Shown piece after piece: positions 3,318 through 23,104 of a stretch of 24,000 nt of DNA. Under the pieces are notes generated by a model that did not search any database, had not been told where the DNA came from, and saw only the letters and a list, made by a program, of their open reading frames with translations. The number at the start of each line of letters is the position of its first letter. The first letter of the stretch is position 1. The stretch comes from Rhizobacter sp. (GTDB taxonomy: Bacteria > Pseudomonadota > Gammaproteobacteria > Burkholderiales > Burkholderiaceae_C). The DNA lies in the NCBI GenBank assembly GCA_046595475.1, contig JBKJOQ010000059.1, one strand, 5' to 3'. The position numbers were made by a program, and so were the translations under genes.

Positions 3318-3988
3318 TGGGCACCGTCTACCTGGTGCGCCACGGCCAGGCCTCGTTTGGCGCCGACAACTACGACAAGCTGAGCGATCTGGGCCACCGC
3401 CAATGCGAGCGGCTCGGCGAGTACTTTCGCGGCAAAGGCTTGCGCTTTGATGCCGCGCTGGTGGGCACGCTGCAACGCCAGATCGAGTCGCTGGCCGGCA
3501 TTGCCAAGGGCATGCAGTGGCAGGCAGAGCCGCTTTCATGGCCAGGGCTTAATGAATACGACAGCAAGGCGGTGGTGAGCGCCATTCACACCGGCCCGCT
3601 TGAAAAGCCCACCACGCCCGAACTCGTGCGCCACCACTTCCGCCTGTTGCGTGCAGGCCTTGCCGCCTGGATGGCCGGCACCAGCCAGCCCGAAGGCATG
3701 CCAAGCTATGCCGACTTCGTCGCAGGCATCACCGGGGCGCTAGACCACGTGCGTGGCAACCACCACGAGAAGAACGTGCTCATCGTCTCAAGCGGCGGGC
3801 CTATTTCGACCATCGTGGGCCATGTGCTGGGCATGTCACCCGAAGCGACCATTGACCTCAACATGCGCATACGCAACAGCTCGGTCACAGAGCTCGCTTT
3901 CACGCCCAAGCGGCACATGCTCATGACCTACAACACCCTGCCGCACCTCGATCACCCTGATCACGCGGCGTGGGTCACCTACGCTTGA
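3317..3988 (+). CDS. Histidine phosphatase family protein (phosphoglycerate-mutase-like)
   Basis: N-terminal VYLVRHGQASF (RHG catalytic motif) and later SSGGPIS/HxxG-like region. The start ATG overlaps the fbp stop (TGATG at 3315-3319). 223 aa. Confidence 0.85.
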   Translation: MGTVYLVRHGQASFGADNYDKLSDLGHRQCERLGEYFRGKGLRFDAALVGTLQRQIESLAGIAKGMQWQAEPLSWPGLNEYDSKAVVSAIHTGPLEKPTTPELVRHHFRLLRAGLAAWMAGTSQPEGMPSYADFVAGITGALDHVRGNHHEKNVLIVSSGGPISTIVGHVLGMSPEATIDLNMRIRNSSVTELAFTPKRHMLMTYNTLPHLDHPDHAAWVTYA

Positions 3989-4023: not shown

Positions 4024-4099
4024 GCCGGTGTAGCTCAGTTGGTAGAGCAGCGCATTCGTAATGCGAAGGTCGAGGGTTCGACTCCTTTCACCGGCACCA
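4024..4099 (+). tRNA. tRNA-Thr (anticodon CGU)
   Basis: Hand-folded cloverleaf. Acceptor GCCGGTG/CACCGGC, D arm GCTC-AGTTGGTA-GAGC, anticodon arm GCGCA-TTCGTAA-TGCGA (anticodon CGT), T arm with a GTTCGACT loop, discriminator A, and encoded CCA. 76 nt. Confidence 0.95.
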
Positions 4100-5437: not shown

Positions 5438-6427
5438 ATGAAGCCAATGCTTGTGTCAGACGTCGGTTGGTGCATCGCGATGAAGGATGTCTTTACCGCA
5501 TGCGGCCTGGATGCTGAGGCCTTGCTCGCGAAAGCCGGTTTCAACTTCAGCGGTACCGACCAGGTCGACGTCACCGAACTGACCGACGCGTTCAGCCGCG
5601 CGTGGGAATTGGCTGTCGCGCAAACGGGCAACCCGGCGATCGGCCTCACCGCACCGTCGCACCCGCTGAAATCACTGGGCGTGCTGTCGCACATGGTGCT
5701 GTCGGCACCCGACTTGCGCGGCGCCATGCAAGCCATCGTGCGCTTCACGCACCTGATCTCGCCGACCGCCACCTTCGATGCCAAGCTCGATGGCGGCAGC
5801 TGCTTTCTGATCCTTGAAATCGCGCCTGGCCGCAACCCGGTGCCGAGCCAGCGCTACGACTTCTACTCCACCGTGCTCTTGCAAGCCGCGCGCTGGATCA
5901 CCGGGCGCCACCTGACGCCGCGGGCCTTCTATCACCCGGCGCCCACGCCCGCCGACCCCACGCCGTGGCATGAGGCCTACGGCTGCCCGGTGCACTTCGG
6001 CAGCAGCAAATGCATGCTCGAGTTGTCGAGCGCCGACCTCTCGCTGCCGATTCCCACCGCCGACCCGCGCGTGGCCGACCTGTGCGACCGCCTCGCCACG
6101 CAAGTGGCTGAGCAGCAAGGCGGCTCGGTCAGCATCCGCGTGCGCCAGGCACTGCAAAAGATCATCGCCAAGGGCGAGCCGCGCCGTCAGACAGTGGCCA
6201 CCATGCTGTGCATCAGCGAGCGCACCTTGCAGCGTCGGCTTACCGAAGAAGGCACGAGCTTCGCCGAGCTGGTCGACGAAGTGCGGCGCGAACTGGCGCA
6301 GCGCTACTTCAAGCACAGCACCATCAGCTCCACCGAAATCACCTTTGCGCTGGGCTTTGCCGACCCCAGCAATTTCTATCGTGCATGCAAGCGCTGGTTT
6401 GGTCGCTCACCCAGCACCATGCGCTAA
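5438..6427 (+). CDS. AraC family transcriptional regulator (N-terminal AraC-binding-like domain + C-terminal HTH)
   Basis: The C-terminus ...ISERTLQRRLTEEGTSFAELVDEVRRELAQRYF...STEITFALGFADPSNFYRACKRWFGRSPSTMR is a classic double-HTH AraC signature. GGAGAG RBS 7 nt upstream of the ATG. Confidence 0.9.
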   Translation: MKPMLVSDVGWCIAMKDVFTACGLDAEALLAKAGFNFSGTDQVDVTELTDAFSRAWELAVAQTGNPAIGLTAPSHPLKSLGVLSHMVLSAPDLRGAMQAIVRFTHLISPTATFDAKLDGGSCFLILEIAPGRNPVPSQRYDFYSTVLLQAARWITGRHLTPRAFYHPAPTPADPTPWHEAYGCPVHFGSSKCMLELSSADLSLPIPTADPRVADLCDRLATQVAEQQGGSVSIRVRQALQKIIAKGEPRRQTVATMLCISERTLQRRLTEEGTSFAELVDEVRRELAQRYFKHSTISSTEITFALGFADPSNFYRACKRWFGRSPSTMR

Positions 6428-6451: not shown

Positions 6452-6910
6452 ATGATCGAAAGCGCCGAAGCGTTTGCCGAGATGGTCAACAGCACGCCTC
6501 CCGACCCGTTTCGTCTGGCCTGGGCCGAAGCGCCAACGGCGGTGTGGTGGGAGCTCGTGGATCGCTATCCGCATCTGTCGGCCTGGGTGGCTGCAAACCG
6601 CACCGTGCCTGAGGAAGTGCTGGCGCATCTCGCATCCCATGGCAACACACAGGCACGCACGGTCGTGGCCTCCAAGGCCCAACTCCCTGAGCAACTGCTC
6701 TTGATCCTGGCGCACGACAAAGACGAAGCCGTGCGCCTGCGTGTGGCGTTCAATGCGCTGGCCACCCGCGAGGTGCTGGCTTCGCTCGCCAGCGACGCCT
6801 GTCCCGTCGTGCGCATGCACGCGCAAGCGCGCCTCACCCACGGCATCAGTGGCAACAACTTGCCCGCGTCGTATCTCGACTCCGTCAGCCTCGCAGACCT
6901 GCTGCACTGA
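6452..6910 (+). CDS. Hypothetical protein with leucine-rich-repeat-variant / HEAT-like helical repeats
   Basis: Repeats of roughly 23-24 aa: PEEVLAHLASHGNTQARTVVA / PEQLLLILAHDKDEAVRLRVA / TREVLASLASDACPVVRMHA. It starts 24 nt after the AraC stop, so it is probably co-transcribed. No clear RBS. Confidence 0.55.
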   Translation: MIESAEAFAEMVNSTPPDPFRLAWAEAPTAVWWELVDRYPHLSAWVAANRTVPEEVLAHLASHGNTQARTVVASKAQLPEQLLLILAHDKDEAVRLRVAFNALATREVLASLASDACPVVRMHAQARLTHGISGNNLPASYLDSVSLADLLH

Positions 6911-7236: not shown

Positions 7237-7770
7237 ATGAAACTGATCAAACTGTCCGTCCTCGCCGCAGCCCTGGTGCTGAGCTTCTCTGCTTCCGCCG
7301 CCATGACCCCCATCAGCGACTCCGCCCTCAGCGAGGTCACGGGCCAAGACGGCGTGACGATCGCAGGTGACCTGAAAATCAACATCGGCTCGTTCCGCTA
7401 CACCGACACCGACGCCACCGGCGGCTCCGTGTCGTTCAACAACATCGGCATCAACGGCATGTTCGTGATGACCGTGGACATCCTCAATGCCGCAGCCTTC
7501 TCGGGCGGCGTGGGTGCGGCCATGGTCAGCCACGGCCTGACGGCTGCTGAAGCCGCCACGAACCTCACCGCACTGGTGACCAACGGCGTGTACGACAACG
7601 CCAGCGACGTGGTTCAGTTCGCTTTCCCCGCTGCCAACCTCGACACCCGCCTGACCCCGAGCATCTCGGTGGCCTCGATCACCATGGGCCACAGCACGCG
7701 GTCGTTCGGCAGCGTCGCCTTGAACAACATCGACCTGCAAGGCACCAAGATCTGGCTGTGGGCTCACTGA
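7237..7770 (+). CDS. Secreted leader-motif protein P1 (177 aa), candidate major subunit of the cluster
   Basis: GGAG RBS 8 nt upstream. Sec signal [21 protein letters not shown], followed at once by [14 protein letters not shown]. The mature part is Cys-free and G/N/S/T/A/V-rich, with an internal repeat [12 protein letters not shown] / [12 protein letters not shown]. The track ORF start at 7024 was rejected. Confidence 0.8.
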
Positions 7771-7824
7771 GCCATGAGTTGACGGCGCCCTCTCTCTTTG
7801 GGCGCTAGCTCGATGCATCGTTAG

Positions 7825-7860
7825 GCCCCGTGGCCCTCCCGCCACGGGGCATTTGTGTGT
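7825..7860 (+). terminator. Stem-loop (10-bp perfect GC-rich stem) + T-rich tail after P1: terminator or attenuator
   Basis: GCCCCGTGGC-cctccc-GCCACGGGGC at 7825-7850, followed by ATTTGTGTGT. It lies in the 157-nt gap between P1 and P2. Confidence 0.6.
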
Positions 7861-7927
7861 CGCGCTCGTGTGTTGCATCGCTTGCCACTCACTTACCCAA
7901 CTTCGAACCGCCCTATGGGCCACCACC

Positions 7928-8731
7928 ATGCCAGTCCGTTTCACATTCGCTGTTTGCCTCGTCGCCGCTCTGTGTGGCGCGGGCACGGCTGTGCACGCCC
8001 AGGGTGTGGCACTGGCCGACAGCGAACTCTCCAACGTGTGGGGCCAGGCGCTGCTGGACCTCACCAACACCAGCCTCAACGGCTACGACTTCTCTCGAAT
8101 CACGCTTGGCGCCGACATCCAGCTCAGCGCCAACTTGAGCAACGTGCGGCTGGGCGAATACAGCTACGCCGCGCGGAACGCGACCGGCGCCGACATTGAC
8201 CTCGGCCTGTTTCGCTTCGGGCGCAGCGATGGCACCGACGCACAGCGCACGGTGAGCATCACCGACCCCTACTTCGAATTCGTCTACAAGAACAACAGCG
8301 ACGCAGCCACACGCGAAGTGGTGGGCATGCGCCTGGGCTTCGGCAGCATCAAGGGCGATCTCGGCGTGCAGCTCAACGCCGTGAGCGGCTCCTTGCTGAT
8401 CAACGGTGGCGCGCTTGGCACGCTCGATTCGCGCAGCGACACGCTGGGCGGCAAGCGCTGGGACGGCGGGAGCTGCGGCGCCAGCGCCTGCCCCTTCACG
8501 CTGGCACAAATCAGCACGCTTACCGCCGGAGACGCCAGCGGCCCCAGCCGCGACTTCTTCATCTCGGTGCTCAAGCAGGCCGTGCAGTTCCCCGGCACCA
8601 GCGCCGCTGTCGGCGCATCAGACCCGGCGCTGGCCGGCTTCTGGCTCAACTGGCGCGATCGTCTCTCCGCGACCGGACTCAACCAGCCGGTGCCACCCAA
8701 CCTGCCCAAGCTGGCCATCGGCGGCGGCTGA
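7928..8731 (+). CDS. Secreted leader-motif protein P2 (267 aa)
   Basis: Sec signal MPVRFTFAVCLVAALCGAGTAVHA, then QGVA-LADSELSNVWGQ. Start chosen at the Met that yields a signal peptide; the track start at 7853 lies in the terminator tail. Confidence 0.72.
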   Translation: MPVRFTFAVCLVAALCGAGTAVHAQGVALADSELSNVWGQALLDLTNTSLNGYDFSRITLGADIQLSANLSNVRLGEYSYAARNATGADIDLGLFRFGRSDGTDAQRTVSITDPYFEFVYKNNSDAATREVVGMRLGFGSIKGDLGVQLNAVSGSLLINGGALGTLDSRSDTLGGKRWDGGSCGASACPFTLAQISTLTAGDASGPSRDFFISVLKQAVQFPGTSAAVGASDPALAGFWLNWRDRLSATGLNQPVPPNLPKLAIGGG

Positions 8732-8733
8732 AC

Positions 8734-9654
8734 ATGATGCGCAGTACCCGCTCCTTGTCAGCGCATGCCCTGTGCGCGCTCACCTTGCTGGCCAGCGCCG
8801 CCTGCCACGCCGGCGGCCTGCAGCCGCTGAACGACGCCGAGCTGTCGGCCGTGAGCGGTGCCGACGGCCTGGCCTTCAACCTGCGCGGCTTCTCGCTCTC
8901 GGGCCCGATCACGTTGACCTACACCATGCCCGGCCCGGCAGGCAATTCGCTGTGGCTCTCAGACTTCGCGCTGTCGCGCAGCGACGACCTGGCCACCACC
9001 TTCAGCGACCCCTACCGCCTGCAAGTGCTGGCGCGCGGCAACGGCCTCGCCGATGTGATCCGCCTGAGCGAACCAGAGAACGCCAACGGCTTGCTCAAGT
9101 GGCAGTTCGCTGCCGACTGGGGCGTCAACGCCGATGGCATGAGCTTTCATGGCGGTGCGCTGGTGGTGCAAGACCTGGTCACCCGCGGCGGCAGCCTGAC
9201 GCTGACCACCCCCGCGGCCGCTGACGTGGAAGGCATTGCCTTCGGCGCCGCCCTGCGCATCGACATTGCCAACCTGATGCTGCGCCCGCGCGGCCGTGAC
9301 GACACCAGCAACCCCGACCCGGCCACTGTGAGCGAGCAATGGCGCTTGTCGGGCATACACCTCGGCGCGGCCTCCAGCAGCGGCGTGCTGCTGGGCTCGC
9401 CGTGGGCGATTGCCGATGCCACCACCCAGCCGGGCATCGTCAACGCCGTGACCGATGCCAGTGGCAACTCGAACCTGCACATCGGCATCGACTGGCCCAC
9501 CAACGGCAACAGCGCAGCCATCGGCGGCCTGCTGATCGACAACATCACGTTCAAGAGCAGCACCCTGCCCGGCGGCATGCTCGATCTGGGCTCGAGCCGC
9601 GTTGGCACGATGCAGATCCAGTACCTAGACGTGAAGCTCAGGGCGGGGTTCTAA
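8734..9654 (+). CDS. Secreted leader-motif protein P3 (306 aa) with an OMP-like C-terminus
   Basis: Signal MMRSTRSLSAHALCALTLLASAACHA, then GGLQP-LNDAELSAVSGADG. Ends in ...QIQYLDVKLRAGF (alternating hydrophobic residues, terminal Phe). Only 2 nt after the P2 stop. Confidence 0.75.
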   Translation: MMRSTRSLSAHALCALTLLASAACHAGGLQPLNDAELSAVSGADGLAFNLRGFSLSGPITLTYTMPGPAGNSLWLSDFALSRSDDLATTFSDPYRLQVLARGNGLADVIRLSEPENANGLLKWQFAADWGVNADGMSFHGGALVVQDLVTRGGSLTLTTPAAADVEGIAFGAALRIDIANLMLRPRGRDDTSNPDPATVSEQWRLSGIHLGAASSSGVLLGSPWAIADATTQPGIVNAVTDASGNSNLHIGIDWPTNGNSAAIGGLLIDNITFKSSTLPGGMLDLGSSRVGTMQIQYLDVKLRAGF

Positions 9655-9655
9655 C

Positions 9656-10120
9656 GTGCGTGCCTTTTTCCCCCTGTTGCTGCTGGTACCGATGCTGGCC
9701 TGCGCCAACCCGGTGGCCTTGAGCGACGAAGAACTGTCTGGCGTCTGCGGTCAAGACGGCATCGGCCTGGCCATACACCTGGAACTGAATTCGGCGCTGA
9801 TCGCAAGCGGCGTCTTGAACAGCAGCCTCACCGCCGGCTTCAAGGTCAACGGAACGACCACCTATGCCGTGGTGCAAAACCTCGGCGGTGTGCTCGACCT
9901 GATCGGCCTCACGCTCAACATCCACACCCGCAGCGACGGCGGCGGCGATTACATCGACCTGGGGCTGCCCAGCTTCGTTGGCTTCAAGCAGTTCGGGTTT
10001 CGCGCCCTGGGCGCGCAGACCGACCCCAGCGCCGCGATTGCACCGAGCGGCAGCTACGGCCAGGTGCTTCTCAACGGCACGGGCACGATGACCGGCCACC
10101 TCTTGATCTGGGCGCAATAG
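9656..10120 (+). CDS. Secreted leader-motif protein P4 (154 aa)
   Basis: GTG start 1 nt after the P3 stop. Signal MRAFFPLLLLVPMLACA, then NPVA-LSDEELSGVCGQDG. The C-terminus GQVLLNGTGTMTGHLLIWAQ aligns with the P1 C-terminus [20 protein letters not shown]. Confidence 0.75.
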   Translation: MRAFFPLLLLVPMLACANPVALSDEELSGVCGQDGIGLAIHLELNSALIASGVLNSSLTAGFKVNGTTTYAVVQNLGGVLDLIGLTLNIHTRSDGGGDYIDLGLPSFVGFKQFGFRALGAQTDPSAAIAPSGSYGQVLLNGTGTMTGHLLIWAQ

Positions 10121-10138: not shown

Positions 10139-10903
10139 ATGTGGATGATCCTGCTCGGCGTGGCCGCCGTGTTGATCAGCGGTGCGGGCATCAGCTCGCA
10201 AACACCGCCTCAACCGCAACCCAAAGACAAGTTCGAGCTGCCGATGGCACGCGTGGGCGGCGGCCCCGCGCCCGACACCGTGGCCATCGTTCCGTACTCG
10301 GAATTCAAGTACCAGAACATCGTTCGCCAAGCCTACGACTACAGCTGCGGCTCGGCCGCGCTGGTGACCGTGATGAAAAGCTACCTCGGCGTTCAAGTCT
10401 CCGAGGAGCAGGCCATGGAAGGCATGCTGGCCCACGGTGAGCGCGAGAACATCGTGACGCGGCGCGGCTTCTCGCTGCTCGACATGAAGCGCTACCTCGC
10501 CACGCTGGAGATCAGCTCAGCGGGCTTTCGCGCCGAGATGTCCGACCTGGCCACGCTGAAGGAGCCCGGCATCGTGCCGATCGAGTACGCCGGCTTCAAG
10601 CACTTCGTCGTGTTCCGCGGCCTGCGCGACGGGCGCGTGTACCTGGCCGATCCGTCCATGGGCCACATCACCTTCCCGGCGGAAGAGTTCGCCAAGCTGT
10701 GGGACCGCAACACCCTGTTCGTGCTGTACCCGGCCAAGAACAACCCCGTCACCCTCAGCAAGCTTGCGCTGACCGACCGCGAGCTGGGTGTGATCGACGG
10801 CGACCTGGTTCGCACTGAAGCCATCTTCCCCCAACTCGACCGGACCGAAGCCCTGCGCAGCGCAGTGCAATCGGGGCTCGGCACCTTCAACTTGCGAAAA
10901 TGA
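10139..10903 (+). CDS. Stand-alone C39-family (bacteriocin-processing type) cysteine peptidase, signal-anchored/periplasmic
   Basis: N-terminal hydrophobic segment MWMILLGVAAVLISGAG. The block RQAYDYSCGSAALVTVMKSY has Gln 6 residues before the catalytic Cys (codon 10346-10348). Downstream are FKHFVVFRG (His) and YLADPS (Asp). AAGG RBS. The stop overlaps the next start (ATGA). Confidence 0.85.
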   Translation: MWMILLGVAAVLISGAGISSQTPPQPQPKDKFELPMARVGGGPAPDTVAIVPYSEFKYQNIVRQAYDYSCGSAALVTVMKSYLGVQVSEEQAMEGMLAHGERENIVTRRGFSLLDMKRYLATLEISSAGFRAEMSDLATLKEPGIVPIEYAGFKHFVVFRGLRDGRVYLADPSMGHITFPAEEFAKLWDRNTLFVLYPAKNNPVTLSKLALTDRELGVIDGDLVRTEAIFPQLDRTEALRSAVQSGLGTFNLRK

Positions 10904-11949
10904 AAGCAGCCCTCTTCATCCCCCTCCTGCTGCTCTGCAGCGCGGTCACCGCCCAGACCACCGCTCCCGCACCAGACACGCCAGCCGCGCCGGCCACGCC
11001 TGCCTCGGCCCCCGCCACAGCCGACGCCGCACGCGGCGCCCTCGCCAAGAAAGAAGGCGACTTCGACCAGGCCAAGCTGCTGAAAGAAACGCTCACCGCC
11101 TCCGACAAGCAGTACTCACTGCTCAAGACGGGCAAATACGCCGTCACCTACGACCTCACCTACTCGTACATCGGCCAGCAGCAGATCCAGGCCGCGTTTA
11201 CCGACTCGCTGCTCACGCTGTTCGACATCCAGAACACGCGCTCGCACACCGTCACCAACACCGTGTCGACCGACTACGGTGTGAAAGACAACTTCACTGC
11301 GAACGTGACGCTGCCCTTCGTGAGCAAGTATTCGCAGTCCGAGGCCTTCACCGGCTTGTCCAGCGCGTTTGGCGACATCTCAATCGGCGCGCGCTTCCAG
11401 CCCTTCTCGCTCAGGCGCGATCTGCCCACGTTCACCGTCACCGGCGGGCTGCGCCTGCCCACCGGCCGCAGCCCCTTCAAGACCATCGACGGCCAGGGCC
11501 TGGCCACCGGCGCCGGCTACACCTCGGCCACGGTGGGCATGAACGTGTCGCAGGTGGTCGACCCCGTCGCGCTGTTCGGCTCGCTCAACCTCACGCTCGG
11601 CAAGAGCGCCAAAGGCCTGAGCCAAACGCGTGCCGGCAAAACCCTGACCGAAGTGCACCCCGGTGACAGCATCGGCTTCGGCTTCGGCATGGCCTACGCC
11701 ATGTCGTACAACATCTCGACCACGGTGGCGTTCCAGGAGTCGGTCTCCGCACGCAGCCGGCTCTTCCTGCGCGACAGCAATGGCGTGGACTCTGACGTCA
11801 AGACCGCCCCGCAGACCTCGGCCATGCTCAACCTGGGTCTGGGCGTGCGGGTCTCGCCTCTCACCACGATCAACTTCACCGTGGGCATAGGCCTGAGCAA
11901 CGACAGCCCCGACTTCACCCTCGGCATGAACATGCCGCTGCATTTCTGA
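10900..11949 (+). CDS. Outer-membrane beta-barrel protein (resembles the MetA-pathway/phenol-degradation 'transporter' OMP family) with an N-terminal PT/A linker and charged helix
   Basis: Signal MKAALFIPLLLLCSAVTA. It is followed by a low-complexity stretch, QTTAPAPDTPAAPATPASAPATADA, and a charged segment, ALAKKEGDFDQAKLLKETL. The rest shows alternating beta-strand patterns and ends ...FTLGMNMPLHF (terminal Phe). Family assignment is from pattern memory, not a search. Confidence 0.72.
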   Translation: MKAALFIPLLLLCSAVTAQTTAPAPDTPAAPATPASAPATADAARGALAKKEGDFDQAKLLKETLTASDKQYSLLKTGKYAVTYDLTYSYIGQQQIQAAFTDSLLTLFDIQNTRSHTVTNTVSTDYGVKDNFTANVTLPFVSKYSQSEAFTGLSSAFGDISIGARFQPFSLRRDLPTFTVTGGLRLPTGRSPFKTIDGQGLATGAGYTSATVGMNVSQVVDPVALFGSLNLTLGKSAKGLSQTRAGKTLTEVHPGDSIGFGFGMAYAMSYNISTTVAFQESVSARSRLFLRDSNGVDSDVKTAPQTSAMLNLGLGVRVSPLTTINFTVGIGLSNDSPDFTLGMNMPLHF

Positions 11950-11959
11950 GCGCAGCGCC

Positions 11960-13591
11960 GTGATCTCGAAAGCGCCTAGCCCGCGCGCGGGCCGCAGGGC
12001 CCTGGCGGCCTGCGCCGCGGCCGCCTCGGTCGTGGCGGCACTGCCGGCACGCGCCGCCTTCATCGAAACCATCGGCACGAGCCCGGTCGCCATGTCGCTC
12101 GGCAACGCTGTGACGGCCGACCCGCCCGGCCTCGACGCCATCCACTTCAACCCGGCCGGCCTGACGCACATCAAGGGCAACACGCGGCAAGACACCATCT
12201 TCGGCGCGTCGACCAAGCCTTACGCCCACTTCACGCAGCCCGCTGGCTTCGACATCGGAGGCTTTAAAGACGACCCGCTGGCCAACACCTCGACCGGCCC
12301 GGTGCGCCAGGCCATCTACCTGCCCATCGTCGGCCCGCCCAAGGCGCGCCTGCCCTTCGGGCTTGCCGCCGGCTTGGGCTTTGCTTACCACGAAGAAGGC
12401 TCGCCCTGGACCTTCGCCACCGCCACCTATCTGCCGCAAGCCGTGGGCTTTGACCGCAGCCGCGACCCGAACGACCCCGGCCGCTACGACGGGCGCCGTG
12501 TCGTGATCCAGCGCCTGGTCTACCTTTCGCCCTCGATCGGCTACAAGGCTTCGGACACCTTGAGCCTGGGCATTGCAGTGCCCATCGCGCACCAAGGCTT
12601 TGCGCTCAACACCGACATGCGCTTCCCCAACAAGCTGCTGGGCGTCATCGGCAAGCTGCAAGACGCCTGGTGCGGCGACAACAGCAACCCACTCGACGCG
12701 TTCGCCTTCGGCCTGTGCGACGGTGGCAACAAGGCCGGCCACCTGCGCCCGTTCGAAAAAGCCGGCAGCATGGAATTCGAGATGACCTCGCCCGCCGACC
12801 CGACGCTCAACCTCGGTGTGCTGTGGGAGCCCAAGAGTTGGTTTGGCATGGGTGCCGTGTACCAGTCGGGCTCCAAGACCGTACTCACCGGGCGCTACAG
12901 CTTTCAGTCGGAAGAGATGTTCCGCAGCTTCGTGCATGGCATGTACAGCAGCCTGCTCGGGCCAGTGGTGGCCTCGACCTTCGGCTTCCCGACCTCAATC
13001 CCGCCCATTCAAAGCGGCAACGCCACGCTGATCATGCCGCTGCCCGAGCACATTCAGGTGGGCATCAAGTTCAAGCCCTTCGAGCGCGTGCAGATCAACT
13101 TCGACGCCAACTGGACGCACTGGAAAGACTGGGACAAGCTCACCTTCCAGTTCGACCAGCCGGTGGCCCTGCTGGAGATGGCGCGCATTTTCGGCCAGAC
13201 CGATTCATCCCGACTCGTCATTCCGCGCGGCTACAAGAGCACCATCCACTACGGTGTGGGCCTGCAAGTGCGCGTGACCGATTCGCTCATGCTGCGCGCC
13301 GGCTACGAGCCGCGCAAGGCCTCGGTGACAAACTCGGTGCTGGACCTCATCGCCCCGCTACCCGACGTCACCATCAAGAGCCTCGGGGTCGGCATTCGAA
13401 CCCACGACGGCCTGCAAATCGACCTGGGCGCAAGCTACGCCAGCGGCAAGTTCAACATCCCTGCCGAGGGCAGCTGCAACTTGAATTGCAGCAACTTCTT
13501 CAACGCCGTTTACAACCCCTATGCCGGCCTCGACGTGAGCGGTGGCATCCGCATCCGCTACTACGGCATCACCCTGTCCAAGCCATTCTGA
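11960..13591 (+). CDS. Outer-membrane transport protein, OMPP1/FadL/TodX-like (543 aa)
   Basis: GTG start. Signal ...AASVVAALPARA. The N-terminal block GTSPVAMSLGNAVTADPPGLDAIHFNPAGLTHI is typical of the FadL family. Ends in IRIRYYGITLSKPF. Longer than the typical roughly 430-aa FadL. Confidence 0.8.
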   Translation: MISKAPSPRAGRRALAACAAAASVVAALPARAAFIETIGTSPVAMSLGNAVTADPPGLDAIHFNPAGLTHIKGNTRQDTIFGASTKPYAHFTQPAGFDIGGFKDDPLANTSTGPVRQAIYLPIVGPPKARLPFGLAAGLGFAYHEEGSPWTFATATYLPQAVGFDRSRDPNDPGRYDGRRVVIQRLVYLSPSIGYKASDTLSLGIAVPIAHQGFALNTDMRFPNKLLGVIGKLQDAWCGDNSNPLDAFAFGLCDGGNKAGHLRPFEKAGSMEFEMTSPADPTLNLGVLWEPKSWFGMGAVYQSGSKTVLTGRYSFQSEEMFRSFVHGMYSSLLGPVVASTFGFPTSIPPIQSGNATLIMPLPEHIQVGIKFKPFERVQINFDANWTHWKDWDKLTFQFDQPVALLEMARIFGQTDSSRLVIPRGYKSTIHYGVGLQVRVTDSLMLRAGYEPRKASVTNSVLDLIAPLPDVTIKSLGVGIRTHDGLQIDLGASYASGKFNIPAEGSCNLNCSNFFNAVYNPYAGLDVSGGIRIRYYGITLSKPF

Positions 13592-13597
13592 TCTGCC

Positions 13598-14161
13598 ATG
13601 AAAACTCTGATCACACGCACCATGGTTCACGCCACCCTGGCCTTCACGCTGCTCGCCTGGGGCAACGCGGCCTTGGCGCAACAGGCCGCCACCGACGAAA
13701 AGCAAAAGCTGGTGCAGCGCGTGCTCACGCTGTGGCACATCGAAGACACCGCTGTGGTCATGGTGCAGCGGCCCGCGCTTGACGCCATGCAGCAGGCACG
13801 CATCGCTTTGCAAGGGCGCGTGGGCGCGGCCAAGCAAGAGGCCACGCTGAAAGACATCGCCACCGACCTGCAGAAATACATCGACGAAGCGACGCCCATC
13901 GTGAAAGAAAACGCCAAGCGCGTGAAGGCTCCCACGCTCACCCCGCTGCTGATGCAGAACTTCAATGAAGAAGAGCTGCGCCAGCTGATCGCTTTGCTCG
14001 AATCACCGGTGAAGAAGAAGTTCGAGCAGTTGGTGCCGCAATTTGAGCGTGCCTTCGGCGAGAAGGTCGCAGCCGATGCCCACGCCGCGATCGACCCCAA
14101 GCTGCAAGAGATGACCAAAGCGGTGGGCTTGAAGCTTCGCGCGGCTTCTATGACTCCTTGA
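13598..14161 (+). CDS. Periplasmic DUF2059-like protein
   Basis: Signal MKTLITRTMVHATLAFTLLAWGNAALA. The mature part is all-helical and K/E/Q-rich, with the block FNEEELRQLIALLESPVKKKFEQL that matches my recollection of DUF2059 (F..eEl..l..Fy.sp.g.k). 6 nt after the FadL-like stop. Confidence 0.65.
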   Translation: MKTLITRTMVHATLAFTLLAWGNAALAQQAATDEKQKLVQRVLTLWHIEDTAVVMVQRPALDAMQQARIALQGRVGAAKQEATLKDIATDLQKYIDEATPIVKENAKRVKAPTLTPLLMQNFNEEELRQLIALLESPVKKKFEQLVPQFERAFGEKVAADAHAAIDPKLQEMTKAVGLKLRAASMTP

Positions 14162-14305: not shown

Positions 14306-16036
14306 ATGACAACGATGCACCCCTTGCTGACCCAGCGCCTGCTGGCACTGCTGCTGGCAGCCCTGCTCACGGCCTGCGGCGGCGCCACCACGGGCGGCGT
14401 CTCGGCCACGCCCTCGGGCGCGGCGGCCTTGTCGCTCAGCCTAGCCGGCAGCGCGCACCCTGGGGTCGACCATGTGTGGGTAACGGTCAGCGCGGTTGCC
14501 CTGCACACCGACGCTGACCGCGCCTGGTCGCCCACCGACACCAGCTGGCAGGTGATGCCGCTGGCGCAGCCGCTCACGATCGACATCGCCTCGCTGACCA
14601 ACGGCGTCATCGCCTCGCTCTTCAGCGGCAAAGCCCTGGCGCCTGCCACCTACACGCAGCTGCGGCTGTTCGTGCTGGCACACGACGACACACTGGCCGC
14701 GTCGGCCAAAAACCTGAGCCTGCTCTACAACGCGCAAGTCAGCAGCACCGACAGCGCAGGCACCGTGCACCAGCTGCCGCTAGAAATGCCCGGCACCAGC
14801 CTGGGCCTGCGCGTGGGTTTGGGCGTGGACGCAGGTGTGGGCGACCCGATCACGGCGATCGCCAGCACGCTCAGCAGCATCACGCTGCAGTGGGATCTGG
14901 AACACAGCCTGGTTCATTTCACCGCCGACGATGGGGTGGACCGCTACACCCTGCGCCCCGACCTGCGGGCCTTTGACCTGGCCCGCACGGGCGCCATCGT
15001 CGGCTTGATCGACAAATCGCTGCTGTGCAGCGCCGGCACACGCAACGGCTGCATAGACAACATCGTGATCACCGCCCAGCTGCCAGCCAGCGATGGCAGC
15101 GCCAACGTGAGCGTGCGTTCCACACCCGTGACCGTGGGCGCGAGCTATGCCCTCTTTGCGCTGTACCCACTGCCGGCGTCGCCCACCGGCCAGTTCGACG
15201 TGGTGATCCGCGGGCGCAACATGCAGACCATGGTGGTGCGCCATGTGCCGGCAAGCACCGCCGACCTGCTGGCCACGGCGCCCACGCAGCTCGGCGCCAA
15301 CCCGGGCGACCCCGCCCATCCCATTCCGATGCTCCCCGTGCTGAGTGCGCAAGGCGATGCTCAGGCCAGCCTCTCAAGCGCGCTGTCGCCGCACAGCGCT
15401 CAGCTGGTGTTCGGCCAGACGCTAGCGGGGACGGGTGAGCTGCCCTACGAAGTGGTGATTGCCAACACCGACCCCTTCACTGGCTTGCTCGCGCAGCCCG
15501 TGGCATTGCCCAGCGGCCCGCTGCGCGTGGCGACCTATTCGGCCGACGCGGTGCTCAGCTTCAGCGACGTGACACCGCAAGAAGGACCAGACCGCTACAC
15601 GCTGCGCGCCCACGGGACGCGCTACGACGACCCAGGTGCGCCCAGCAGCGTGTTGGCTACGGGTGGCAGCAATTTCAGCGTGGCTGCGGCCAGCCCACAA
15701 CGCAAAAACACCCTGGGTCTCGCAACGCTAACGCTCAGCGTGAGCGGCGGCTCAACGCAGCGTTTCGACGCAGCGCAAGTGCTGGTGACCGACGTGGCAG
15801 GCATCGTGAGCACGCAAGACATCTCGGCGCTCATCGGCCAGAGCGGTGCGCAGGTCTCGCTGCCGTTGCCCGCAGGCGCGATTGCCGCCGCGCTCGGCGG
15901 CACGGCGGTCTACACCGTGGAAGTGCGCGCCTGGCAACGCGCCACACCCGCGCAGAGCCTGCAGTGGGTGCGCGTGCCAGCGCCGCTTGACCTGCGCAAC
16001 ACCAGCTCGGCCAGCGTGGCCATCACGCTGCCATAG
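14306..16036 (+). CDS. Large lipoprotein, DUF4382-like N-terminal domain (576 aa)
   Basis: Lipobox LLAALLTAC-GG. The N-terminal region ...VDHVWVTVSAVALHTDADRAWSP...LTIDIASL...TYTQLRLFV resembles DUF4382. The remainder is Ala/Ser/Thr/Val/Leu-rich and beta-rich. The start codon (14306 vs 14315) is uncertain. Confidence 0.68.
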   Translation: MTTMHPLLTQRLLALLLAALLTACGGATTGGVSATPSGAAALSLSLAGSAHPGVDHVWVTVSAVALHTDADRAWSPTDTSWQVMPLAQPLTIDIASLTNGVIASLFSGKALAPATYTQLRLFVLAHDDTLAASAKNLSLLYNAQVSSTDSAGTVHQLPLEMPGTSLGLRVGLGVDAGVGDPITAIASTLSSITLQWDLEHSLVHFTADDGVDRYTLRPDLRAFDLARTGAIVGLIDKSLLCSAGTRNGCIDNIVITAQLPASDGSANVSVRSTPVTVGASYALFALYPLPASPTGQFDVVIRGRNMQTMVVRHVPASTADLLATAPTQLGANPGDPAHPIPMLPVLSAQGDAQASLSSALSPHSAQLVFGQTLAGTGELPYEVVIANTDPFTGLLAQPVALPSGPLRVATYSADAVLSFSDVTPQEGPDRYTLRAHGTRYDDPGAPSSVLATGGSNFSVAAASPQRKNTLGLATLTLSVSGGSTQRFDAAQVLVTDVAGIVSTQDISALIGQSGAQVSLPLPAGAIAAALGGTAVYTVEVRAWQRATPAQSLQWVRVPAPLDLRNTSSASVAITLP

Positions 16037-16054: not shown

Positions 16055-16465
16055 TCAATGCCCGGGTTCGGCCTTTTTGGGCGGCGGCACCATCAAAAAT
16101 GGAAACGGCAAGGCCAGCATAGGCAGAAAGAGCGTGTCCAGCGGCAGGGAGACGGTGGCCGCCGATGCGCTTTGCACCAGGCCCACCGAACCGAGCGTGG
16201 TCACGGCGGCGAACTTGTATTGCGCCAGGGCTTGCTGGCGATCGAAGTGAGCCCAGTCCATCCAAGGTGAAGCAGCGGGCGCGGTGTCGGCACTGCCCAG
16301 CAGAATGTTGCGCAGCAGCGGGTCGCTCAGGCCGGCGGCGTGCACGGCCGACAGTTCGCTGTCAGCCAGCAGGCGCCCGGGGCTTTCCATCGCCTGGCTG
16401 GCCACGGTGATCAAGGCGAGCAAGGGCGCGGCCAGGCTCCGCACAAGAACGCGGGTGTTTTTCAT
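16055..16465 (-). CDS. Secreted leader-motif protein P5 (136 aa), divergent paralogue with a hydrophobic Pro/Phe-rich tail
   Basis: GGAG RBS 6-7 nt upstream of the ATG at 16465. Signal MKNTRVLVRSLAAPLLALITVASQA, then MESPGRL-LADSELSAVHAAG, with the motif G-[QA] replaced by A-A. C-terminus LDTLFLPMLALPFPFLMVPPPKKAEPGH. Convergent, 18 nt from the lipoprotein stop. Confidence 0.6.
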   Translation of the reverse strand: MKNTRVLVRSLAAPLLALITVASQAMESPGRLLADSELSAVHAAGLSDPLLRNILLGSADTAPAASPWMDWAHFDRQQALAQYKFAAVTTLGSVGLVQSASAATVSLPLDTLFLPMLALPFPFLMVPPPKKAEPGH

Positions 16466-19036: not shown

Positions 19037-20752
19037 TCACGCCAAGGGCGCGACCGCGACGCGGTTGCGCCCTTCTTTTTTGGCCCGGTAAAGCGCGTTG
19101 TCGGCCTGCTCCAGCAGCTGAGCGGCATCGAGCCGCGCGTGACCCAGGCACAGCCCGATGCTGATGGTGACGCTCAAGCCTGCGGCCACCTCGTCCCAGC
19201 CGTGGCCTTCGATGGCCGCGCGCAGCCGCTCGCAGGCCTCACCGGCCCACTCGAGCGTTGACGAAGCAAAGACGATCAGAAACTCTTCGCCGCCCGTGCG
19301 TGCGATCAGATCGCCGCCGCGCACACGCGCACGGAACAGGTCGGCCGTGGCCATCAGCACTGCATCACCCACGGCATGCCCGAAGCGGTCGTTCACCTGT
19401 TTGAAGTGATCGAGGTCGAGCACCGCCACAGCCAAAGGGACACCGGTGCGCGTGCTGTGTGACATGAGGCGCGGCAGCTCGCGCTCCACCTGGCGGCGGT
19501 TGCCCAGGCCGGTGAGCGGGTCGGCCAGCACATAGCGGCCCAGCTCGCGAGCCTGCGCCTGCAGGCGCTCGGCTTCGGCAGCCATCTGCTCGGCGCGCAC
19601 CCGCTGCAGCTCAGCCTGCATGCGTGAGCGCTCGGCGCCGAAGAGGGCTTGGTCGAGCTCCAGCCGGTTCATCATCAGGCGCGATTGAGCATCACAGCGC
19701 TGTTCCAGCTGCTCTTTGGTGAGGGCGTGGTACGCCTCGTGGTGTGCGAGCGCCTCGCCCAGGTCGCCACGCGCCTTGTGCGCCAGGTAGAGCTGCAGGT
19801 GCATGTCACGCACCATGGCGTTGGCATAGAGCTCTTGGGCGCCGGCCAGCGCTTCATTCAGCAAGGGCACGGCTTCGTCATAGCGCTTGCCTCGCACCAG
19901 CAGCTCGGCGCGGCTGCCATCAGAGGCCAGCACCAGCGCGCGGTGGCCATGCTGCACGGCGAGCGCGCGCGAATGGTCGAGCAGCGTGTAGGCCGCCTTC
20001 TCTTGCCCGCTCACGCCAAGGTAGCGGCCCAGATTCGACAGCGTCAGCGCCTCGCGATAGGCGTTGCCCGACCGGCGCGCCACGTTGAGCGCTTCTTCAC
20101 CATGGCGGCGCGCGCGCTCCATGGCGGCCTGGGCGCCCACGAGGTCACCACGCGATTCAAGGGCGTCGAAGGCATCGGAGGCCACCACTCCCAGGTTGGT
20201 GAGCGCGCGGTAGATCTCTTCTTCGCTTTGCAGCTCGCGCGCCATGGCAAGCGACTCGGCTAGAAATCGCTCGCCCTCTTCGAAGCGCCCCAAATGCCCC
20301 TTGGTCAGGCCCACGCGGTTGTAGGCCAGGCACAGCAGGCCTGCATCACCGCAGGCGCGTGCAGCTTCCACGCTTTCGCTGACGTGGTCTAGCGCCTCGG
20401 CATTCAGACCGAGGTCGAGCAGCGCCATCGCCATGTTGCACAGCACTTCGGCACGCGCCGCGTCGTCACCCGTCTCACGCAGGGTGGGCAGCACGGCCTG
20501 CCCGGCAGCAATGGCCTGCTCAGCCAGGCCTTCGCGGCAATTGAGCGTCACCAGCAGGCGCAGCGCTTTCGAAAGGCTCGCGCTGTCTTGGGCGTCTCGC
20601 GCCAGAGCCTCGGCTCGCAAGGCGAGCTCGATGCCGCGGGCATGCTCGTCCCGCTCGGATGCCTGCTGGGCCTGCTGCAGCAGGGCGATCAGCGAGGCAG
20701 GGGCTGCCGCCACATGTGGCGCGTGGGATGCTTGCGTGCCGGGCGGGTTCAT
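19037..20752 (-). CDS. Diguanylate cyclase: N-terminal TPR-like repeats + coiled coil + GGDEF domain (GGEEF active site, RxxD I-site)
   Basis: GGEEF is encoded at 19280-19294 (minus strand) and preceded by RGGD-LIART, an I-site at the canonical 5-residue distance. VAVLDLDHFKQVNDRFGHAVGD is a typical GGDEF block. The N-terminal two thirds are helical repeats (ALxxxAxA...). Start set at the Met (20752) that avoids overlap with the upstream gene; the start is uncertain. Confidence 0.9.
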   Translation of the reverse strand: MNPPGTQASHAPHVAAAPASLIALLQQAQQASERDEHARGIELALRAEALARDAQDSASLSKALRLLVTLNCREGLAEQAIAAGQAVLPTLRETGDDAARAEVLCNMAMALLDLGLNAEALDHVSESVEAARACGDAGLLCLAYNRVGLTKGHLGRFEEGERFLAESLAMARELQSEEEIYRALTNLGVVASDAFDALESRGDLVGAQAAMERARRHGEEALNVARRSGNAYREALTLSNLGRYLGVSGQEKAAYTLLDHSRALAVQHGHRALVLASDGSRAELLVRGKRYDEAVPLLNEALAGAQELYANAMVRDMHLQLYLAHKARGDLGEALAHHEAYHALTKEQLEQRCDAQSRLMMNRLELDQALFGAERSRMQAELQRVRAEQMAAEAERLQAQARELGRYVLADPLTGLGNRRQVERELPRLMSHSTRTGVPLAVAVLDLDHFKQVNDRFGHAVGDAVLMATADLFRARVRGGDLIARTGGEEFLIVFASSTLEWAGEACERLRAAIEGHGWDEVAAGLSVTISIGLCLGHARLDAAQLLEQADNALYRAKKEGRNRVAVAPLA

Positions 20753-20777
20753 CAAGGTCGCACTGCGGGGCTTGAGA

Positions 20778-23014: not shown

Positions 23015-23104
23015 GGAAGCGTGGCCGAGCGGTTTAAGGCACTGGTCTTGAAAACCAGCGATGGGGGAACCCATCCGTGAGTTCGAATCTCACCGCTTCC
23101 GCCA
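23015..23104 (+). tRNA. tRNA-Ser (anticodon UGA), class II with long variable arm
   Basis: Acceptor GGAAGCG/CGCTTCC, D arm GGCCGAGCGGTTTAAGGC, anticodon arm CTGGT-CTTGAAA-ACCAG (anticodon TGA), and a long variable arm CGATGGGGGAACCCATCCG. T arm GTGAGTTCGAATCTCAC, discriminator G, encoded CCA. 90 nt. Confidence 0.95.

Follow-up and report, generated by a model that had tools for sequence, protein, structure and literature searches.

Double-glycine leaders and C39 peptidases are known as parts of cytoplasmic peptide export that is coupled to ABC transporters, as in the PCAT systems ComC/ComA, colicin V/CvaB, LahT, and PCAT1. Another leader-processing system is that of the type IV prepilins, in which the dedicated peptidase PilD, an aspartic protease at the cytoplasmic face, removes the N-terminal leader, which is short, conserved, and terminated by Gly, from every subunit of the fibre, whether major or minor. 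The closest relatives of the locus described here are two fibre systems. In Acinetobacter Tol 5, FilA was found as a fimbrial protein (PMC3498257), and NCBIfam describes a "putative pilus system" FilA-FilD (NF050077-NF050080) with the gene order subunit, C39 peptidase, FapF-like protein, and FadL-like protein. The Fap functional-amyloid system of Pseudomonas (FapA-F) contains the C39 peptidase FapD, which acts in the periplasm and of which the catalytic cysteine is required for secretion (PMC5557850), and the trimeric barrel FapF; the substrate of FapD was stated as unknown in papers of 2017 (PMC5557850) and 2018. A third relative is a Pilus-like-alpha filament from karst-cave water, for which a model was built into the density of the environmental filament (PDB 9XFV/EMD-66838; PNAS 2026; PMC12956863). 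In that paper, the filament served solely as a validation case for handedness determination, and the main text is silent on its signal peptide and its N-terminus (PMC12956863).

The window analyzed here, i.e., the whole stretch of 24,000 nucleotides, contains a Fil/Fap-type fibre operon with the gene order AraC, P1-P4, FilB (C39), FilC (FapF-like), FilD (FadL-like), DUF2059 protein, and P5 (Table 1). All five P proteins carry a conserved 12-residue segment, in the following termed the tag, and we consider it probable, at roughly 70%, that this tag represents a minimal propeptide of the double-glycine type behind a Sec signal, cleavage by signal peptidase I (SPase I) being followed by cleavage by FilB in the periplasm.

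Table 1. Features of the fibre operon in the window (positions are those of the window; signal peptides, propeptides, and the mature N-terminus are predicted).
Feature	Position	Strand	Description
AraC-family regulator	5438..6427	+	Upstream of the operon; homologue in 43/58 full-length loci
P1	7237..7770	+	Major fibre subunit (DUF6160/FilA-like)
P1 signal peptide	about 7237-7299	+	
P1 propeptide	7300-7347	+	16 aa
P1 tag	7312-7347	+	12 residues, -12 to -1
P1 mature N-terminus	7348	+	Asp38
P2	7928..8731	+	Paralogue, 267 aa
P2 signal peptide	about 7928-7999	+	
P2 propeptide	8000-8047	+	
P2 tag	8012-8047	+	LADSELSNVWGQ
P3	8734..9654	+	Paralogue, 306 aa
P3 propeptide	8812-8862	+	
P3 tag	8827-8862	+	LNDAELSAVSGA
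P4	9656..10120	+	Paralogue, 154 aa, GTG start
P4 propeptide	9707-9754	+	
P4 tag	9719-9754	+	LSDEELSGVCGQ
FilB	10139..10903	+	FilB-like stand-alone C39 cysteine peptidase, 254 aa; N-terminal uncharged hydrophobic helix, C39 core, conserved C-terminal tail
FilB Cys70 codon	10346-10348	+	Catalytic
FilB His155 codon	10601-10603	+	Catalytic
FilB Asp171 codon	10649-10651	+	Catalytic
FilB tail segment	10769..10804	+	Tag-like, LTDRELGVIDGD; family consensus LxLxDxELGVxDxD
FilC	10900..11949	+	FapF-like outer-membrane barrel; start overlaps the FilB stop codon
FilD	11960..13591	+	OmpP1/FadL/TodX-family outer-membrane protein; Pfam Toluene_X E 1e-43
Accessory protein	13598..14161	+	Signal peptide, weak DUF2059 match; conserved, 43/58 full-length loci
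DUF4382 lipoprotein	14306..16036	+	N-terminal LLTACGG; Pfam match; occasional cluster member, 3/58 full-length loci
P5	16055..16465	-	Small tagged protein, 136 aa
P5 signal peptide	16391-16465	-	
P5 propeptide	16334-16390	-	
P5 tag	16334-16369	-	LADSELSAVHAA

Co-occurrence was counted over 58 full-length related loci, all of which contain FilB, FilC, and FilD together, while homologues of the mature part of P2 are present in 43 of them. The order of the core genes equals that of the Acinetobacter Fil system, and the scores against the NCBIfam models with their cut-offs were 38/220 bits for FilA, 222/475 bits for FilB, 271/630 bits for FilC, and 409/970 bits for FilD; judged by these profiles, FilA-D of the window are homologous to, but fall outside, the narrow NCBIfam Fil models, all four being far below the cut-offs. 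No match to FilE or FilF was obtained in the comparison with the Acinetobacter system, and unlike the latter this lineage adds four tagged paralogues as well as the DUF2059 and AraC genes. FilB and FilC are also homologues of FapD and FapF: FilC matches the FapF crystal structure 5O65 with an E-value of 6e-17 (phmmer), and the scores against NCBIfam were 127 bits for FilB against FapD (cut-off 330) and 80 bits for FilC against FapF (cut-off 700). The operon is not a member of the Fap system itself, with these equivalog scores under the cut-offs, no FapB/FapC amyloid-repeat subunits, and no Pfam FapBC match in any of P1-P5. It furthermore differs from Fap in that all subunits rather than just one are tagged, in the extra FadL-family protein FilD, and in the N-terminus of the peptidase, which is a canonical signal peptide in FapD and an uncharged helix in FilB.

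The sequence-only reading of this DNA had reported the 12-mer in all five P proteins, right behind the signal peptidase site. Its coordinates agree exactly with all five translations, and the tag begins 4-7 residues past the site. As judged by eye, the N-termini of P1-P5 show a basic n-region followed by a hydrophobic core and by a small-x-small site (ASA, VHA, CHA, ACA, and SQA). A six-frame scan of the window with the strict pattern [LIVM][SANTED][DE].[EADQ]L..[VIL].[GA]. returned 6 sites vs. 0 in the reversed sequence and a mean of 0.075 over 200 shuffles; the sixth site, missed by that first reading, lies in the C-terminal tail of FilB (LTDRELGVIDGD, 10769-10804). The residue at -1 is Gln in three and Ala in two of P1-P5, and P5 has Ala at -2. 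While the tag is common to the paralogues, their mature parts are unrelated in length and sequence and range from 136 to >760 aa across the family. P1 is the sole P protein above the gathering cut-off of 27 bits for Pfam DUF6160 (PF19657; 83.3 bits); P2-P4 reach 18-24 bits over the N-terminal part only (P2: 18 bits), and P5 obtained no score with this profile. What is shared consists in essence of the signal peptide and the tag. Against NCBIfam FilA, the N-terminus of P1 alone is covered, the tag aligning to positions 20-41 of the model. Proteins of the P5 type (A/G at -2, then G[LM][SD]D...) are found again 4-6 kb past FilB in many loci, and in the source genome of 9XFV such a protein lies at the equivalent place on the opposite strand.

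A position-for-position fit of the tag to the spacing of double-glycine leaders had been proposed, and it holds over 242 distinct tag copies from family members, for a comparison that took in 200 related loci with conserved positions -15, -12, -10, -8, -7, -4, and -2. Residue frequencies among the 242 copies are L/M 77% at -15, L/I/M 97% at -12, D/E 98% at -10, E/D 65% and A 26% at -8, L/M 99% at -7, V 79% (V/I 84%) at -4, and G 83% and A 15% (together 98%) at -2. The tag therefore has the hydrophobic residues at -4, -7, -12, and -15, the acidic residue at -8, and the Gly at -2 of a double-glycine leader, and the match includes -15 as a fourth hydrophobic position, which is absent from the original list. 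It departs from such leaders at -1, where instead of Gly, Ala, or Ser mostly Gln or Arg is found (Q 54%, R 26%, A 9%, G 7% of the 242 copies), and in its location, as it is not the extreme N-terminus of a protein devoid of a Sec signal: an n-region, an h-region, and an AxA-type segment precede it in P1-P5 and in the 242 relatives. To our knowledge, no characterized C39 peptidase accepts Gln or Arg at -1, the known substrates having Gly, Ala, or Ser. Members of the family ending in GG also align in register with the leader models for ComC, lactococcin, and class IIb, and one GG-ending relative reached 15.1 bits with TIGR01847, in register and below the cut-off of 15.7; the propeptides of P1-P5 gave no match to curated leader profiles except a weak one of P4 to BLP_Lacticasei. 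Compared with the PCAT systems, leader length and spacing as well as the C39 fold with the catalytic Gln/Cys/His/Asp are shared. Unlike PCAT leaders, however, the tag stands behind a Sec signal peptide, so that it would be exposed only in the periplasm; unlike PCATs, FilB is a stand-alone peptidase devoid of an ABC transporter; and the substrates differ as well, with mostly Gln, Arg, or Lys at -1 and with fibre subunits of 136 to >700 aa as cargo instead of small peptides.

FilB is a bona fide C39 peptidase by its Pfam score, its catalytic set with the oxyanion Gln, and its papain-like C39 fold. Its sole significant Pfam match is Peptidase_C39 (PF03412) with 65.6 bits at a cut-off of 22, the AF2 model of its core has pLDDT values >90 and matches PCAT1, ComA, and LahT150 (Foldseek E 1e-8), and Q64, C70, H155, and D171 are invariant over 86 homologues, which includes the active-site cysteine that had been assigned earlier from the sequence. 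No ABC-transporter domain was found among the operon genes scanned, and FilB is thus not a C39-ABC exporter fusion. The N-terminal helix is kept in all lineages examined. Because this segment is devoid of a basic n-region, the topology of FilB is one that we infer; by homology to FapD, the catalytic domain would be periplasmic. In the tag-like segment of the tail, E215, G217, and D222 are invariant, while the Gly at the equivalent of -2 is not conserved.

Residues 38-177 of P1 align to residues 1-173 of the 9XFV chain (phmmer E 2e-46; Foldseek E 1.7e-16, 53% identity). This chain is 100% identical to residues 38-210 of P0116, the P1 orthologue, and accordingly starts at the residue right after G36-Q37. 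Its source genome (locus L201) has the same gene order as the operon in the window and also contains the AraC homologue with Pfam HTH_18/Arabinose_bd matches. The 9XFV subunit, as a P1 orthologue from a syntenic operon, shows that proteins of this family do assemble into helical filaments outside the cell. AF2 models the tag of P1 as a short helix of residues 28-35 with pLDDT values of 55-63, and the core exceeds 90 from residue 39, i.e., the folded core begins at about +1/+2 after G-Q.

Enrichment of the tag beside C39 genes had been suggested as a check. In 80 genome loci, which were located through FilB alone and then scanned for a signal peptide plus tag, 224 matches were found vs. 1 in the reversed control. 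A tag HMM was positive for 72 of 81 sources, and those of the apparently negative sources that were inspected carry variants (LEDEAMSEMTGQ in L063 and L066, LDDASLAGISGQ in L065). Tag and FilB co-occur in almost every locus with enough DNA, which links the tag to a C39 peptidase that stands alone and retains its Gln/Cys/His/Asp set.

In the sequence of events which we favor, P1-P5 would be exported by Sec, and SPase I would cut at the AxA-type site, leaving an N-terminal peptide of 16-19 residues. This peptide would be amphipathic, with hydrophobic residues at -15, -12, -7, and -4, acidic residues at -10/-8, and Gly at -2, and its helix may be bound by FilB as bacteriocin leaders are bound by PCAT peptidase domains. 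FilB, either kept at the inner membrane or freed from it through its N-terminal hydrophobic segment, is the presumed enzyme cutting the propeptide; it would cleave after G-[Q/R/A/G], so that the mature subunit begins with D-G-[V/I]-S. Cleavage may be coupled to export, with a hand-over to FilC and FilD and assembly of the P1 filament. SPase I is excluded as the enzyme cutting G-Q|D, because Gln or Arg at -1 breaks its -3/-1 rule, under which neither residue is accepted in this position. The type IV prepilins offer a parallel in the removal of a short Gly-ending leader from all subunits by a dedicated peptidase; folds and machinery are unrelated, and the prepilin leader takes the place of Sec signal cleavage, whereas the tag comes after that cleavage.

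The sequence-only reading had left the choice between two-step maturation and a periplasmic sorting tag. The latter would be retained uncut and disordered in the filament and would bind a chaperone-like FilB C39 domain or a periplasmic part of FilC, routing the subunits to the outer-membrane transporter. Since AF2 predicts the tag segment to be flexible, its absence from the 9XFV model is no proof of cleavage, and the first modeled residue may only mark the onset of order. C39-like domains that bind substrates and are non-catalytic are known (PMC5557850), and the half-motif in the FilB tail, which lacks a conserved Gly at -2, suggests that LxDxEL may be sufficient for binding; Gln or Arg at -1 would moreover be unusual for a C39 cleavage site. 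We nevertheless regard a retained tag as rather improbable, because the catalytic residues of FilB are all invariant over the 86 homologues and Fap needs its catalytic cysteine, because Gly/Ala at -2 is conserved as a scissile site would be, and because the 9XFV chain begins exactly at +1 and not a few residues to either side. Two-step maturation is favored by this start together with the boundary of the AF2 core and the incompatibility of G-Q|D with SPase I.

Two further explanations are less likely still. Another periplasmic or extracellular protease might remove the propeptide while FilB acts elsewhere, e.g., on a linker of FilC, similar to FapF, which was weighed as a possible FapD substrate by Rouse et al. 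(PMC5557850). Such a separation would agree with five loci from metagenomes (three kinds: L088/L165, L090/L188, and L196), which speak against the favored reading: each contains a cluster of 3-4 large tagged proteins between housekeeping genes, and no C39 peptidase lies nearby. However, FilC and FilD are also missing from these loci, all three genes being absent within 1-10 kb of DNA, so that the clusters look like split operons rather than like peptidase independence. The C39-type spacing of the tag, the matches of its GG variants to leader profiles, and the co-occurrence with FilB argue in the same direction, and we consider a different protease quite unlikely. The resemblance to double-glycine leaders could also be coincidental, if the 12-mer were a conserved N-terminal element of the DUF6160 fold such as a polymerization strand or helix, with no role in targeting or processing. 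The segment does lie inside the Pfam DUF6160 model (positions 20-45 of 96); but it is outside the confident AF2 core, is missing from the native filament model, is shared by proteins with otherwise unrelated mature parts, and is present in FapE and FapA too, which makes a purely structural role very improbable.

FapE carries the tag after its signal peptide in five of five fap operons examined, and three of the four FapA-like proteins found contain an internal copy. The tag in FapE predicts a cleavage site for FapD. Beyond the operon described here, the motif L-x-D-x-E-L-[SA]-x-[VLI]-x-G-[QRKAG] might be the general recognition and cleavage signal for all periplasmic stand-alone C39 peptidases of the FilB/FapD clade. 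It would define a previously undescribed two-step Sec-then-C39 route of subunit maturation for the distinct class of surface fibres of Gram-negative bacteria that 9XFV represents, and FapD would cut FapE behind G38-R39 (Pseudomonas operon L203), while FapA would contain either a further cleavage site or a decoy; we give this generalization about even odds. It counts against the proposal that in the data of Rouse et al. FapE peptides were missing over the first ~70 residues, a stretch longer than the 39 residues up to the predicted site (PMC5557850). For Fap, the tag offers a concrete and testable cleavage site in FapE. Leader and peptidase seem to act together in the periplasm, with the leader following a Sec signal; this would be a new arrangement of targeting signals, and the tag would serve to mark all subunits of a widespread fibre system for maturation. 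It joins three hitherto separate pieces, i.e., the Acinetobacter Fil fimbriae, the environmental filament of 2026 that had no biology attached, and the Pseudomonas Fap machinery. It would also imply that one lineage of C39 peptidases can cleave after Gln, Arg, or Lys (P1), a point relevant to protease specificity and to the engineering of periplasmic processing tags. By pattern scan, at least 593 FilB-like stretches were found among species-representative genomes, with further matches in metagenomes, again as a lower bound.

Retranslation of the window confirmed both position and reading of the 12-mer tags that had been described for the five secreted paralogues P1-P5, and inspection by eye bore out the Sec signal peptide proposed ahead of each, with a basic n-region, a hydrophobic core and a small-x-small site, the tag starting 4-7 residues past this site. 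A strict pattern of the motif applied to all six frames of the window returned six sites, while the reversed sequence gave none and 200 shuffles a mean of 0.075. The sixth site, which is additional to those first noted, lies in the C-terminal tail of the stand-alone C39 peptidase FilB. Matches of the DUF2059 protein of the locus to a loose regular expression (FNEEELRQLIAL) were rejected as tags, being internal helices; the helix F[ST]E[ED]ELRQ[LI]IA[LI]LESPV, which triggers such loose patterns, is not N-terminal. An assignment of P4 as a lipoprotein (MLAC) was likewise rejected, because the lipobox is mismatched and the Cys is absent from P4-type homologues.

A genome scan seeded with FilB alone yielded 80 related loci from Sphaerotilaceae, Oxalobacteraceae, Pseudomonas, Kistimonas, Hahellaceae, Oleiphilus and Marinobacter, which contain 224 motif matches behind a hydrophobic segment compared with 1 in reversed-sequence controls. 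A motif HMM was positive in 72 of 81 sources, with up to seven tagged genes per source, and the inspected "negatives" hold variants outside the model such as LEDEAMSEMTGQ in L063 and L066; the best 20-column motif matches score ~31 bits, which would fall below significance in a database of 1.84 billion representatives. Counted backwards from the proposed cut, the 242 distinct motif copies carry L/M at -15 (77%), P/A at -13, L/I/M at -12 (97%), D/E at -10 (98%), E/A/D at -8, L/M at -7 (99%), S/A/G at -6, V at -4 (79%), G (83%) or A (15%) at -2 and Q (54%), R (26%), A (9%) or G (7%) at -1, followed by D/G at +1 and G/L at +2. In the family the motif usually starts 3-4 residues past an AxA-type site, so that SPase I would leave a peptide of 15-19 residues, which, judged from these sequences, would include every one of the four hydrophobic positions that a minimal double-glycine leader has.

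The leader of colicin V, MRTLTLNELDSVSGG, is 15 residues long and closely resembles such a peptide. When 25-residue segments were scanned against curated leader profiles, an Oxalobacteraceae relative ending in VSGG/DG (the slash marks the proposed cut) reached 15.1 bits with TIGR01847 "bacteriocin_sig" at a cut-off of 15.7, and it also matched the ComC, lactococcin, class IIb and lantibiotic leader models with GG in register at -2/-1; the Q- or A-ending tags of the window matched FilA and DUF6160 only, plus a weak BLP_Lacticasei match for P4. Taken together with the residue frequencies, the likeness to double-glycine leaders claimed in the sequence-only reading holds for the spacing, which is kept in the 242 copies, fails at -1, where mostly Q or R is found, and is borderline in the profile match. 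In Oxalobacteraceae the P4-type paralogue carries a true double glycine, VSGG/DGISF (L018, L032, L033, L039, L040, L044, L046, L047, L050, L051 and others), and the tags of the genes beside it in that operon close with GQ or GR, so that a single peptidase would need to tolerate G, Q and R alike at the P1 position of the cut.

Cleavage at this site was approached from three sides. SPase I itself was rejected as the enzyme cutting at G-Q/D, since a bulky Q or R at -1 and a distance of ~16 residues beyond the h-region are against SPase I rules. AlphaFold renders the P1 motif as a short helix (residues 28-35, pLDDT 55-63), with the confident core of the model starting from residue 39. The only PDB structural match to this model, at 53% identity (Foldseek E 1.7e-16), is 9XFV, the helical "pilus-like-alpha" filament of karst-cave water (PMC12956863), and no PDB relatives of P2-P4 were found. 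The 173 residues of the 9XFV chain are 100% identical to residues 38-210 of a P1 orthologue (P0116) and span from the Asp after its G36-Q37 to the C-terminal His. The 9XFV model was built into density first and then matched to a UniProt entry, and the main text of that paper leaves signal peptide and N-terminus unmentioned (PMC12956863). The operon of the 9XFV source genome is organised as in the window, with AraC, DUF6160, three further ORFs, C39, FilC-like and Toluene_X genes, then an ORF of DUF2059 size and, on the other strand, a small ORF. The exclusion of SPase I, the start of the predicted core and the start of the filament chain agree in pointing to cleavage of the tag; the filament start is strong support and not proof, since the first modelled 9XFV residue might only mark the onset of order.

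The sequence-only reading had set two-step maturation beside a use of the motif as a sorting tag, and of these two-step maturation is best supported by the AlphaFold boundary, the 9XFV start and the invariant catalytic residues of FilB (probability about 0.7). The subunits would be exported by Sec, SPase I would remove the signal peptide and FilB would cut behind G-[QRAG], a step that would be coupled to hand-over to the outer-membrane proteins FilC and FilD and to filament assembly. Residues Q64, C70, H155 and D171 of FilB are invariant in 86 homologues, and these catalytic residues, like the Gly or Ala at -2, are a poor fit for a tag that is retained for docking, which the structural data by themselves would allow but which we regard as unlikely. 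Removal of the tag by a different protease is more doubtful still, and a purely structural tag, which fits the data worst, is highly improbable.

FilB has an intact C39 core, which in the AlphaFold model (pLDDT >90) superposes on the peptidase domains of PCAT1, ComA and leader-bound LahT150, and the N-terminus of FilB is an uncharged hydrophobic helix from the outset in every lineage examined. By analogy with FapD, which acts in the periplasm (PMC5557850), FilB is presumably periplasmic. The tail segment LTDRELGVIDGD (residues 211-222; family consensus LxLxDxELGVxDxD) is non-helical in the AF2 model (pLDDT 60-77), with E215, G217 and D222 invariant in 86 homologues and the Gly at the -2 equivalent not conserved; it could serve for docking or as a pseudo-substrate. 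Earlier records exist separately for periplasmic C39 peptidases (FapD), Fil fimbriae, DUF6160 and the 9XFV filament, and the tag, its likeness to double-glycine leaders and its occurrence in FapE are not described in the texts searched on DUF6160, FilA/FilB, FapD and periplasmic C39. The arrangement proposed here is a variant on known parts, a double-glycine leader/C39 pair shifted into the periplasm behind a Sec signal, with relaxed specificity at the P1 position.

A wide occurrence of the motif in genomes that lack any C39 peptidase had been named beforehand as counting against the proposed role of the motif. A degenerate DNA motif pattern run over metagenome contigs returned at least 120 stretches; among the 120 matches listed, 108 encode signal-peptide-plus-motif proteins and 40 have FilB nearby on the contig, most others being uninformative on FilB, as their DNA breaks off ~2 kb or less from the subunit genes. 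Three kinds of locus, five loci in all (L088/L165, L090/L188, L196), differ. Each encodes 3-4 large signal-peptide-plus-tag proteins (~200-760 aa), bordered by housekeeping and other genes such as mnmE, yidC, dnaA, dnaN, dcd, proS, an ECF sigma factor or a TetR regulator, and no C39, FilC or FilD was found within the contig DNA at each locus. What is missing from these clusters is the entire export machinery, beyond the peptidase alone, and from the contigs they are read as split operons; this machinery may be encoded at an unlinked site, or something else may read the tag.

The tag extends to the Fap system. In five fap operons (L203-L207), retrieved with a FapF fragment as query, each FapE has the tag behind the signal peptide, and the FapA-like proteins of L204, L206 and L207 hold an internal copy ~70-90 residues in, that of L203 being degenerate, which suggests that FapA might be another FapD substrate, or else a decoy. 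All six Fap proteins of L203 were scanned and its FapB and FapC gave no match; the scan of L204-L207 covered the FapE, FapA-like and FapD sequences. In the data of Rouse et al., FapE was the one Fap protein for which N-terminal peptides were lacking, and they described the target of FapD as "unclear" (PMC5557850), and a 2018 review states that the FapD substrate "is yet to be determined". The FapE tag supplies a specific candidate bond for FapD cleavage, although the peptide gap of ~70 FapE residues in Rouse et al. is larger than the 39 residues that the candidate site would remove (PMC5557850).

In the window, the best NCBIfam model for FilB is "putative pilus system C39 peptidase FilB" (222 bits), then FapD (127 bits). 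The gene after that of FilB encodes a FilC/FapF-like protein (E 6e-17 with the FapF crystal structure 5O65 in phmmer), and the next, FilD, belongs to the FadL/TodX family (Pfam/NCBIfam). P1 matches DUF6160 with 83 bits (Pfam), and in P2-P4 this match is confined to signal peptide and motif. Every score of the window proteins against the NCBIfam Fil and Fap models is far under the narrow cut-offs; on sequence grounds the locus is a relative of both systems and a member of neither family. FilB, FilC and FilD occur together in 58 of 58 full-length loci, and P1-P4, the DUF2059 protein and the AraC regulator in 43 of these. The stop of FilB and the start of FilC overlap (ATGA, 10900-10903), and gaps of 2 bases (P2/P3, 8731-8734) and 1 base (P3/P4, 9654-9656) separate the paralogue genes, consistent with a single translationally coupled operon. 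The 152-aa ORF upstream of P1 has a homologue in only 1 of 80 related loci and is therefore probably not a part of the fibre system.

Features of the window, of orphan tagged clusters and of fap operons (slash, proposed cut)
Feature	Coordinates	Strand	Remark
tRNA-Thr(CGT)	4024-4099		ARAGORN
152-aa ORF	6452-6910		between AraC gene and P1; no signal peptide
FilB	10139-10903	+	C39 peptidase
Sixth motif site	10769-10804		FilB C-terminal tail
Signal-peptide protein	13598-14161		weak DUF2059 match; conserved partner
DUF4382 lipoprotein	14306-16036		LLTACGG lipobox; between DUF2059 gene and P5; only 3 of 58 full related loci
Large GGEEF protein	19037-20857	-	C-terminal (diguanylate cyclase) motif, from translation only; 2.5 kb from P5
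tRNA-Ser(TGA)	23015-23104		ARAGORN
Orphan cluster L196	1359-6765
Orphan cluster L088	2645-8467		L165 similar
Orphan cluster L188	1493-7871		L090 similar
FapE L203			LKDHELATLRGR/YVMPG
FapE L204			VSDIALSHVVGR/GVIGG
FapE L205			LGDHELSQLRGK/AVNS
FapE L206			LSDYELAQLRGK/AVNG
FapE L207			VSDNTLSHIVGR/GVIGG
FapA-like L204	11576-11989	-	internal copy LSDDALSEVSGK
FapA-like L207	10745-11161	-	internal copy LSNHALASISGK
FapA-like L206	2232-2465	+	internal copy LSHERLDEVRGR
FapA-like L203 (Pseudomonas)	3546-3980	+	degenerate copy LSDGDFANISSG

The GGEEF protein might have a regulatory part in biofilm or fibre production, and the rest of the window holds housekeeping genes judging by translations, e.g., pepN-like and fructose-1,6-bisphosphatase-like ORFs. 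The C-termini of the paralogues are alike, with alternating hydrophobic strands (P1 TKIWLWAH; P3 YLDVKLRAGF, ~9610-9651; P4 GHLLIWAQ, ~10090-10117), and the proteins encoded by the first genes of L196, L188 and L088 end similarly (LIQHLKIRTTGL); a C-terminal strand of the P1 fold may be common to paralogues and orphan-cluster proteins despite their unrelated middles.
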